Assembly: GCA_029856155.1 (NCBI GenBank)
Contig: JAHQWL010000033.1
Coordinates: 1 to 48,365, forward strand
Direction: 5' to 3'
DNA from: Promethearchaeia archaeon
GTDB lineage: Archaea; Asgardarchaeota; Lokiarchaeia; Sigyniarchaeales; SOKP01
Length of the DNA stretch: 48,365 nucleotides
Below, piece by piece: positions 26,139 to 28,254 of this stretch; position 1 is the first letter of the stretch; every line of letters begins with the position of its first letter. The notes below the pieces were generated by a model. That model searched no databases. It saw nothing but the letters and a program-made list of their open reading frames with translations, and was not told where the DNA came from. The position numbers were made by a program, and so were the translations under genes.

Positions 26139-26648
26139 TTATTTTAGTTTTTTTGTTATCCCTATATTTTTCAATAATGTTTGTACCTCATTTATATCTG
26201 GTGTTACTATAGATGGTAAACCTAATTGTTCTCTTCGCCTCTCAATTGCAGGTTGTGAAGGAATTGCTTTTGCGTTTTCGAAAACTGTCTTTGCTTGAGA
26301 ATAAAGGTAATCTGGTCCCTTCCCTAAAGCAATGCTTTGGTTTTTTAGAAAAGTAAAAATTTCTGTGAGCTCAATATTCTGAGGACATACTTCATCACAA
26401 GTATCACAAACAGTACAACCCCAAATTGTTAGGTCATCAGCTTCAAGTAGTAAATCTTTATACCCTAAAAGAGCCAGTAAGATATTTTTTCTAGGATTAT
26501 AACCCTTATCTGGGTCATAAAAATCCATAGATACTTCAGTTACCGGACAATTATCAGCACATCTACTACATTGATAACAGTATTTAATTACATCAGGCCC
26601 AATATGATAATCCATTATTTGTTTTCTAAATTCAAAATTTGTTTCCAT
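26139..26648 (-). CDS. hdrC: Heterodisulfide reductase subunit C (copy 1)
   Basis: CYQCSRCADNCP and WGCTVCDTCDEVCPQ 2x[4Fe-4S] motifs; RREQLGLP. Confidence 0.92.
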   Translation of the reverse strand: METNFEFRKQIMDYHIGPDVIKYCYQCSRCADNCPVTEVSMDFYDPDKGYNPRKNILLALLGYKDLLLEADDLTIWGCTVCDTCDEVCPQNIELTEIFTFLKNQSIALGKGPDYLYSQAKTVFENAKAIPSQPAIERRREQLGLPSIVTPDINEVQTLLKNIGITKKLK

Positions 26649-26694
26649 TTTTTTTCCACTTTTTTCCTAATTTTTTGAATGAATTTTTTTATAA

Positions 26695-26768
26695 TAGGCT
26701 TTAACCCCACGCAAGGGGCAGTCATATCCAATTTCTATTATTTTTATTGAACATTCATCCTAAGCCTA
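26695..26768 (-). promoter_or_regulatory. Eukaryote-type SECIS element of vhuU
   Basis: Minus strand reads AUGA-A-UGUUCAAU-AAAAAUAAUAGAA-AUUGGAUA-U-GA-C: AUGA/GA core, about 9-bp helix, A-rich apical loop. The lower helix is UAGGCUU/AAGCCUA. The core lies about 80 nt 3' of the in-frame UGA. Confidence 0.8.
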
Positions 26769-26904
26769 CGTTTAAATTTCGAGAGTAAATCTCAGTGCCC
26801 TCTTCATCAACAACTGTGATGTGAGCTGCACACGATAGTCAACAGTCAAAGCAGCGAACTATCATCTCTAAGAGATTTACCACGCCTTCTGGTACATCAC
26901 TCAT
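26755..26904 (-). CDS. vhuU: Selenocysteine-containing hydrogenase subunit VhuU (49 aa; absent from the ORF track)
   Basis: MSDVPEGVVNLLEMIVRCFDC-U-LSCAAHITVVDEEGTEIYSRNLNVGLG*. The TGA at 26841-26839 falls on the first ligand of the C-terminal DxCxxCxxH motif that the upstream large subunit lacks. Confidence 0.93.
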
Positions 26905-26946
26905 CTTTTTTGTTCACTTTTTTATTTAATTCTCAATATATTTAAT

Positions 26947-28254
26947 TTATTTAATCCATGGGTCTGGTAATTTTAAACTGTCAAGTGCCTTGTCCTCGAA
27001 AACTTGTTTAGCTACATGCATAAGTGTCTTTTCGATCCCTGCAATATTATGGTTTGTTGCCACTAAGAGATTTGCTTTTTTACATATTCCATCAGCATCA
27101 GACCATATGTTATATAAGAGTAATCCTCGAGGAGCTTCAGTTATGCCAACACCATTTCCTTCTCTAGGTTGAACATCCAAAGTTTTACAATCTGGATTAA
27201 CAACATCATCATCTTGAAGAAGTGTTGCTATTACTTCAATAGATTCGACTAATTCAATTAATCGAGCCCAATGATAAGCAAATGTATGATGAATAACATT
27301 AGTACCGACTTTCGCTCTCATTGCCTGTAATGCTTCGTCAGCTAAGGGAGTAGCCATTTTATCAGCACAATTAATCATCGCCAATGTATTTGCTCGATAT
27401 ATCCCTTCAGGATATCCGGCAGGTTTATAATACATGTGAGTTGCATATGAGTGCTCTGGAATATGTTCACCTAAAACGTCTAGATATTTTTGAGGTGGAT
27501 AATCGAATTTTTGCCCATCAGGAGAAACAATACGAATATTTCCATCATAAATATCGTGAACACCATTTTTAGTCATCCCAACATAGTAAGTAGGAACTAC
27601 TCCTACATTAGCTACTACATCCCAATAATCTTCGACTACTTTTAAGCCAATTTCAACAGTCTTTTTTGACCATTCTACTTGATCTTCAATTTGTTTTAAG
27701 AATAAATCTCGGACATCTTCATCTAAAGGCTTTTTCATACCTCCTACAATTGCTGATATTGGATGTACTGATTTACCACCAACAGCCTGGCATAGTTTTT
27801 GACCAAAATCCATCATTTTTAATGCCATCTTACCCACATCTGGCATTTGATTAATTATATGCACTACGTTCCTTAACGCAGGGTCTGCAAAAGGTCCTAA
27901 TAAGAAATCAGGCGCGGCGAGTGCATAGAAATGCAACGCATGTGATGAATATTGCTTTGCATTTTGCAGCAATTGACGTAATTTATATGCAGCAGGAGGA
28001 ATTTGTACGCCCCATGCATCTTCTACCGCTTTTGTAGGCGTTAAATGATGAGGAATTGGACATATACCACAAATTCTAGGAGTAATCCTTGGAATATGCT
28101 CACAATAACGTCCTTCAAGAAATTTTTCAAAAAATCTTGTTGAGGTAATGTTAAATTGAACATCTTGTACTTTTCCATCATCACCTAGAACTACTCTCAA
28201 ACCACCATGCCCTTCTAATCGAGTTACAGGTTCTACAACTATTTCTTTTACCAT
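26947..28254 (-). CDS. vhuA: Group 3c (F420-non-reducing) [NiFe(Se)] hydrogenase large subunit, C-terminally split
   Basis: TRLEGHG, RFFEKFLEGR, RICGICPIPH, EAPRG, NLLVATNHN; ends LPDPWIK with no DPCxxC motif. Confidence 0.93.
   Translation of the reverse strand: MVKEIVVEPVTRLEGHGGLRVVLGDDGKVQDVQFNITSTRFFEKFLEGRYCEHIPRITPRICGICPIPHHLTPTKAVEDAWGVQIPPAAYKLRQLLQNAKQYSSHALHFYALAAPDFLLGPFADPALRNVVHIINQMPDVGKMALKMMDFGQKLCQAVGGKSVHPISAIVGGMKKPLDEDVRDLFLKQIEDQVEWSKKTVEIGLKVVEDYWDVVANVGVVPTYYVGMTKNGVHDIYDGNIRIVSPDGQKFDYPPQKYLDVLGEHIPEHSYATHMYYKPAGYPEGIYRANTLAMINCADKMATPLADEALQAMRAKVGTNVIHHTFAYHWARLIELVESIEVIATLLQDDDVVNPDCKTLDVQPREGNGVGITEAPRGLLLYNIWSDADGICKKANLLVATNHNIAGIEKTLMHVAKQVFEDKALDSLKLPDPWIK

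Follow-up and report, generated by a model that had tools for sequence, protein, structure and literature searches.

The SECIS elements closest to the one analyzed here are those of Lokiarchaeota, for which the current NCBI names are Promethearchaeota and Promethearchaeia. Mariotti et al. (2016, Mol Biol Evol, PMC4989117) defined the lokiSECIS as a 9-bp stem that is preceded by AUGA, carries an 11-nt loop starting A-rich and ending in G, and is followed by GA, or by AA in VhuU; within the loop the first five positions are A-rich and the last G is preceded by an A. The same study described the AUGA motif of the Loki VhuU.1 gene as doubling as the stop codon, gave a minimal-distance argument for why nearby UGA stops escape recoding, and noted that standard SECIS tools miss lokiSECIS elements. 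SBP2 is reported to be absent from archaea, Asgard included. According to Huang, Xiao and Zhang (2024, ISME J, PMC11227280), the UGA stops of Lokiarchaeia often overlap the AUGA, and Asgard elements can be described by a type I/II model with a lower stem and an internal loop, type I having a GA_[G/A]A core, an upper stem of 7-15 bp and an apical loop of 8-20 nt. A lokiarchaeal vhuU.2 SECIS was found to be non-functional in Methanococcus maripaludis (Peiter and Rother 2025, PMC11881835).

The DNA studied here (the window) is a contig of 48,365 nt, in which a preliminary description had pointed out a eukaryote-type SECIS at the end of a short selenoprotein gene. The elements described there exist at the places given for them on the minus strand, and RNAfold returned the same topology (Table 1). 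The gene lies in a series of five, vhuG-like, vhuA, vhuU, hdrC-like and hdrB-like, all on the minus strand. Judged by alignment, the short ORF is VhuU, the separate Sec-bearing end of a split [NiFeSe] hydrogenase, because residues 3-35 of its translation align to the C-terminal end of [NiFe] large subunits, solved MvhA among them, with U22 falling on the first Cys of the DPCLSCxxH nickel-ligand motif in the solved MvhA chains. The translation, which terminates in ...GLG when TGA is read as Sec (U, residue 22), carries the pattern D-x-(C/U)-x-x-C-x-x-H on a separate ORF of ~50 residues behind a truncated large subunit.

Table 1. Features of the vhuU locus and its SECIS element (positions in the window; arms and loops are listed in the order in which the minus strand is read)
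Feature	Position	Strand	Remarks
vhuG-like small subunit	29589-28258	-	Gene upstream of vhuA
vhuA, hydrogenase large subunit without C-terminal ligand motif	26947..28254	-	PF00374 match
vhuU CDS	26755..26904	-	50 codons including stop (150 nt): 49 sense codons + UGA stop, ending GGA-UGA; C-terminal nickel-ligand piece, split [NiFeSe] hydrogenase large subunit; translated with TGA=U
Sec-UGA, codon 22 of vhuU	26839..26841	-	84 nt upstream of stop/core UGA
Lower helix H1, 5' arm GUAGGCUU	26762..26769	-	Inside codons Val-Gly-Leu; MFE fold
K-turn C-stem, 5' strand A26761, G26760; G26759 is the first of three bulge nt (G, A, U)	26759..26761	-	
AUGA of SECIS core	26755..26758	-	Gly-49 (GGA) contributes its final base, A26758; the stop codon spans U26757-A26755
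Upper helix H2, 5' arm AUGUUCAAU	26746..26754	-	MFE fold; 9/9 pairs vary on both sides in the orthologue alignment
Apical loop AAAAAUAAUAGAA, 13 nt	26733..26745	-	Five A at start; AG, then two extra A
Upper helix H2, 3' arm AUUGGAUAU	26724..26732	-	MFE fold and covariation
3' core GA (G26723, A26722), then C26721 and U26720 (C-stem 3' strand)	26720..26723	-	
Side hairpin H3, GCCCC-UUGCGU-GGGGU	26704..26719	-	MFE fold; third arm of three-way junction
Lower helix H1, 3' arm AAGCCUAU	26694..26701	-	MFE fold and covariation
hdrC-like gene (2x[4Fe-4S])	26139..26648	-	Start 46 nt past SECIS structure; no U-run between
hdrB-like gene	26123-25230	-	Downstream of hdrC-like

The SECIS extends over the stop codon of vhuU and into the 5 codons before it. 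As had been proposed, the AUGA is supplied by GGA-UGA, with A26758 followed by the stop at 26757-26755, which thus lies inside the core. The two helices named in the preliminary description are also present, but each had been given one pair short: H2 comprises 9 bp (26754-26746 with 26732-26724, A26754-U26724 also pairing) and H1 comprises 8 bp (26769-26762 with 26701-26694, one G.U included). That the lower helix uses vhuU coding sequence and encloses a GC hairpin (26719-26704) matches the MFE fold. A feature absent from the earlier list is a short K-turn C-stem, G26760-C26721 and A26761-U26720, between H1 and the core. Taken as a whole, the structure is a K-turn core under H2 and a three-way junction closed by H1, with H3 as the third arm. 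For 26775..26690 the MFE was -22.3 kcal/mol, compared with -14.6 +/- 3.0 for 200 dinucleotide shuffles (z = -2.57), of which two were as good. At the level of sequence, the parts of a K-turn were found in the form of the C-stem, the bulge G-A-U, the G.A/A.G positions and an NC-stem, and in the modelled core the AUGA and the GA would form tandem sheared G.A/A.G pairs on a C-stem of 2-3 bp. The apical loop consists of AAAAAUAAUAG and two extra A; it has both the A-rich start and the AG, but not the AG as its last two positions. The 3' GA of the core also belongs to the next in-frame UGA (26722-26724, minus strand), 11 codons past the stop, where relatives of the AA type have UAA; this overlap is probably incidental.

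Compared with the VhuU.1 lokiSECIS of Lokiarchaeum, the element is alike in its gene, the archaeal class, the AUGA directly before a 9-bp stem and the A-rich loop start, but it has GA and a 13-nt loop where AA and an 11-nt loop were published; H1, H3 and the C-stem are unmentioned in the text of the 2016 paper, to which this comparison applies. The Asgard eukaryote-like (eSECIS-like) type I model agrees in core, upper stem and loop size, the 13-nt loop falling in its range of 8-20 nt (Huang et al. 2024, PMC11227280), whereas the model, as described in the text, has an internal loop between core and lower stem where a conserved hairpin is found here. With eukaryotic SECIS elements (RF00031, SECIS_1) the vhuU element shares the AUGA/GA non-Watson-Crick core, the A-rich loop and the lower helix, and like them it would act from a distance on a UGA lying upstream; in contrast to them, it has an H2 of 9 bp, shorter than the eukaryotic helix II, a three-way junction and an overlap with the CDS, and SBP2 is not known from archaea. 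In the VhuD SECIS of Methanococcales and Methanopyrus (Mariotti et al. 2016) the 3' side resembles the GAC found here (AAC in relatives), but the methanogen elements have a GAA_A bulge and GC clamps, neither of which is seen in this locus: no GAA/A asymmetric bulge with G-C clamps was identified in the fold or the sequence, and the sole GC-rich helix is the side hairpin. What was found are features of the lokiSECIS and type I elements, namely a position at the 3' end of a selenoprotein gene, AUGA at 26758-26755, GA at 26723-26722, a 9-bp stem and covariation. We are highly confident that the element is the vhuU SECIS of the published lokiSECIS, or Asgard eukaryote-like type I, class.

The view that Lokiarchaeota use eukaryote-like AUGA/GA SECIS elements is in agreement with Mariotti et al. 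2016 (PMC4989117). The proposal that one gene uses UGA both as Sec and as stop is correct for vhuU, but it is not a novelty: the layout with the stop in the core is real and conserved, and had already been published (Mariotti et al. 2016, Huang et al. 2024). A covariance-model scan, which had been suggested as a check, did not pick out the element, since Rfam gave no SECIS match, RF00031 included, either at the gathering score across the whole window or at E<=10 within 26500-27000. Two sub-threshold Rfam matches, DLEU2_1 and snoR41, were rejected as chance matches. The latter, resembling a C/D-box snoRNA, lies inside the hdrC-like CDS (26507-26605, minus strand) and scored 20 bits (E 0.55) against a threshold of 40 bits, and is most likely due to chance. 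For annotation, the element is of value in that it marks a selenoprotein gene missed by standard pipelines, and vhuU, a gene of 150 nt, offers a clean case of a codon that carries two meanings at sites separated by 84 nt.

In order to compare the element among relatives, the vhuA-vhuU locus was taken from 30 relatives and from 80 further named contigs, the latter mostly titled Promethearchaeota or Promethearchaeia. Orthologues of vhuA were present in 39 of 41 relatives and those of vhuU in the loci of 28 of 30, and nearly all of the relatives' loci sampled have a vhuU with an in-frame UGA. The covariation anticipated across Asgard vhuU loci was borne out for H1, H2 and H3. When 27 vhuU elements of four families were aligned with MAFFT, blind to structure, and scored on the window's own fold, 81.4% of cells were paired compared with 66.6% in shuffles, 19 of the 22 pairs varied on both sides, and none of 500 shuffles attained any of the five measures; when the 3' partners were slid by 1-3 columns as a control, pairing fell to 35-52%. 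Covarying pairs numbered seven of eight in H1, nine of nine in H2 and three of five in H3. Where H1 is coding, its synonymous changes (GUA GGC to GUU GGU) had compensating changes in the non-coding 3' arm. A second alignment fitted to a model (A2) misplaced H1 and H3 in divergent rows and was excluded from the counts.

Among 73 distinct vhuU elements, the stop lies within the core in 61, the -1b:-1n pair of the K-turn is G-C in 66, C-G in six and U.G in one, and the -2b:-2n position is paired in 65. In natural variants with an intact element the stop has moved ahead of the core, by 5 nt in the case of a TAG and by 45 nt in that of an early TAA, and in family f2 the stop is TAA or TAG and the element follows 9-27 nt downstream. 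In five further Asgard families (f9, f10, f15, f18 and f21) vhuU mostly ends in G-UGA, with another final residue in one case, and has an NUGA core; the VhuU tail is 21 residues long in all of them, giving an 84-nt spacing where the stop is in the core, and the same three-way junction was found in most. The 84-nt distance between Sec codon and core, spanned by a post-His tail of 21 residues, is kept throughout the sampled Asgard families that have the stop in the core. Because the structure is both conserved and covarying in the orthologues, we consider from these comparisons that it is more than chance, and because the stop moves while the RNA element stays intact, the alignments argue that the RNA is selected for itself.

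Many vhuU relatives have AA in place of the core GA, and apical loops are of 11 nt (ending in AG) or of 13 nt, the longer form occurring in 15 of the 73 distinct elements. Two co-varying subtypes were apparent in the genus: in the first, with 23 distinct elements, AUGA comes with an extra A and the loop of 11 nt with GA, and in the second, with 33, AUGA lacks the extra A and is combined with AA. The combination in the window (AUGA, no extra A, 13-nt loop, GA) occurs in one of the 73. Two relatives of genus g2 (L022:2998-3089 and L023:3001-3092) have the core AUGC...AA, not AUGA...GA, keep the helices and the junction, and still encode Sec-VhuU. In L011:2967-3058, L016:2971-3062 and their relatives the H3 loop reads ACGCAA, which is the usual UUGCGU reverse-complemented, on a retained stem, and the palindromic side hairpin of these relatives looks inverted.

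The same element was identified behind other selenoprotein genes of this genome. A covariance model built solely from vhuU elements scored 48 bits on vhuD, 41 on an hdrA-like gene and 31 on a second vhuD. A motif scan of the genome returned ~20 AUGA-stem-GA/AA matches, seven of them behind ORFs with an in-frame UGA: vhuU, three vhuD (one confirmed as PF02662), the hdrA-like gene and two ORFs without a Pfam family. The genome list of SECIS elements is a lower bound, as the strict scan missed at least two real ones, behind selD and behind a fourth vhuD (contig C98), which were recognised by eye and show the same junction. Six of the seven scanned elements fold as a three-way junction, and in the seventh the hairpin is present and the lower helix uncertain. 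With H2 held fixed, the flanks of the seven real elements had z-scores of -3.2 to -0.3 (mean ~-2), compared with an average of ~0 for the 13 chance matches (Mann-Whitney p 2.5e-4), which lack the junction. Among 24 vhuD orthologues the junction is retained, with 91.5% of cells paired. The genome also has the machinery for Sec: a tRNA-Sec, SepSecS (483 bits), a SelB-like factor (239 bits, slightly below the cut-off of the bacterial model) and a selD with one TGA.

Based on these findings, the element would direct Sec insertion at UGA-22. With a ribosome on UGA-22, the folded element would begin ~72 nt downstream (72-84 nt) and would recruit Sec-tRNASec and the archaeal Sec elongation factor, directly or via a K-turn binder, which we propose to be other than SBP2 because SBP2 is absent in archaea; UGA-22 would then be decoded as Sec. 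Further translation, of codons 46-48 for H1 and of 46-49 with the core, would unwind the lower helix and the core, such that when the second UGA entered the A site the core would be inside the ribosome. This UGA would be read as a stop because no SECIS would be left, a release factor would terminate, and the element could refold after termination. The residues encoded by the coding arm of the SECIS are probably absent from mature VhuU, because [NiFe] hydrogenase maturation cuts off the tail after the His and the solved VhuU chain 9sfi_M, of 27 residues, ends at the position matching residue 29. The earlier suggestion that the terminating ribosome must melt the element amounts to the same minimal-distance argument as that of Mariotti et al. 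2016.

An alternative is that the second UGA is itself partly read as Sec to give a C-terminally extended VhuU, the overlap being a programmed read-through device. The next in-frame stop, the UGA at 26724-26722 that contains the 3' GA of the core, is just 11 codons on, and given the removal of the post-His tail at maturation and the end of 9sfi_M an extension would be harmless. We nevertheless regard programmed read-through as very unlikely, because the frame past the stop is not conserved, ending at UAA 4 codons on in relatives with the extra A, and others having their TAG or TAA ahead of the core; in addition, no selection on an extended product is visible, and the SECIS could not fold with its core in the A site. 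Less probable still, to the point that we give it hardly any weight, is that the structure is a general 3'-end element (a transcript stabiliser, processing site or terminator hairpin) in which AUGA and GA are coincidental. Family f2 and some others do have a U-run, an archaeal terminator signal, right after the element, but neither a plain terminator nor a stabilising hairpin is likely, because the window's genus is without this run, hdrC coming next, and because the set of AUGA, 9-bp helix, A-rich loop and GA/AA tracks genes with an in-frame UGA; that the 13 AUGA-stem matches arising by chance at other places of the genome have no junction also argues against it. Decoding at UGA-22 by a SECIS of the lokiSECIS class is the reading that we retain.

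An H3-type hairpin was found at the same place in vhuU of every sampled family with a parsable element, and also behind vhuD, the hdrA-like gene and selD of this genome; stated by family, vhuU of nine families was sampled and the arm was seen in eight. A covariance model of order-level vhuU elements (R1) was too AT-rich and lineage-specific, giving 10-27 bits in distant families, and therefore a grammar search with shuffled flanks was used. This search located H3 together with H1 in 21 of the 23 elements with a placeable H2, and, depending on the lineage, 0.2-15% of trials with shuffled flanks scored as high for H3+H1 as the real flanks. H3 occurs with 31 distinct stem sequences, and its loop contains GC in 79 of 86 cases. 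A kissing contact was sought as complementarity between the H3 loop and the apical loop of H2, and none was consistent across lineages. Reportedly, a K-turn can be elaborated into a three-way junction, termed a k-junction by the Lilley laboratory; in the vhuU element it is likewise the C-helix side of the K-turn that opens into a three-way junction, a likeness of topology only.

Our tentative proposal, which we hold as a possibility rather than as the expected outcome, is that the Asgard SECIS is a K-turn in a three-way junction of which the GC-hairpin arm is a required second recognition element, phylum-wide and lost toward the eukaryotic SECIS. The arm might be recognised, for example, by the archaeal Sec elongation factor or by another stand-in for the missing SBP2. 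It is also conceivable, if unlikely in our judgement, that H3 is not part of the SECIS and is an independent neighbour, such as a protein-binding or RNase-blocking hairpin inside the lower helix. The H3 stem is nearly invariant among close vhuD orthologues, where covariation is weak as a result, and the published SECIS models leave it out. Against an independent neighbour, however, H3 invariably lies enclosed by the core on one side and the H1 3' arm on the other, it recurs across the sampled families and the other selenoprotein genes with its 31 different stems, and shuffled flanks match the H3+H1 score in the 0.2-15% of trials given above. A further candidate, that H3 and H1 together are a relic euryarchaeal SECIS with a GC upper stem over a lower stem, was rejected because no GAA_A bulge is present.

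In the running texts of the Asgard SECIS papers, neither "hairpin" nor "junction" is applied to a side hairpin, and a full-text search combining SECIS, Asgard and three-way junction returned nothing. We provisionally consider the side hairpin with its three-way junction, and the covarying C-stem, to be undescribed in those texts. The potential importance of the vhuU element would lie in its structural context. The covarying C-stem and the three-way junction, conserved across the sampled Asgard lineages and the selenoprotein families of this genome, are left out of the published models as their texts present them. If the H3 arm is needed for function, this would change the minimal element for reporter and binding experiments, and it would add a step to the proposed transition from the archaeal to the eukaryotic SECIS.

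The preliminary description had the element acting inside a polycistronic mRNA, and co-transcription of vhuU and hdrC is plausible: the sequence between the vhuU SECIS and hdrC has no oligo-U run, and at 26602-26866 and 26647-26831 the window is identical to two contigs of salt-marsh metatranscriptomes, which places the locus in RNA libraries. The longer contig bridges the Sec codon, the SECIS, the spacer and 47 nt of hdrC, which is compatible with co-transcription. Such RNA-library contigs may include DNA carry-over, and a single transcript, its starts, ends and strand are not readable from them; parts of the operon without a contig are uninformative, and the RNA runs X3 and X4 are represented by small shares only. 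An A/T-rich, TATA-like box lies at 26683-26693 (minus strand), ~40 nt before the hdrC-like start, and is conserved at the same place in relatives, and a Shine-Dalgarno-like GUGG/GUGA is found 8-9 nt ahead of the hdrC ATG. Because the TATA-like box sits between the SECIS and hdrC, hdrC may have its own internal promoter besides read-through from vhuU.

Several additional observations were made on the Sec genes of this genome. A Sec-machinery cluster was noted on contig C44 (151825-158373), with SepSecS at 151825-153126 (minus strand) and the SelB-like gene at 157330-158373 (plus strand). The tRNA-Sec was placed by aragorn at 153205-153297 of its contig; if that contig is C44, the tRNA gene directly adjoins SepSecS. 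The vhuD/FlpD family is strongly expanded, with 15 matches in the genome, at least five of which have two in-frame TGA, and with similar numbers in relatives of the genus. On contig C103 (L042:2055-2279, minus strand) a predicted membrane protein of 75 residues has one in-frame UGA (...G-T-V-S-U-R-I...) and no significant Pfam match, and is followed by a lokiSECIS-like element with its core 19 nt past the stop. Finally, an ORF of 164 residues on contig C26 (~63546-64037, plus strand; L040:2546-3037), belonging to no Pfam family, has two adjacent in-frame UGA codons (...S-G-C-U-U-E...) and a full lokiSECIS three-way junction from 14 nt past its stop, with the core at L040:3052, and is a candidate for an unnamed selenoprotein.
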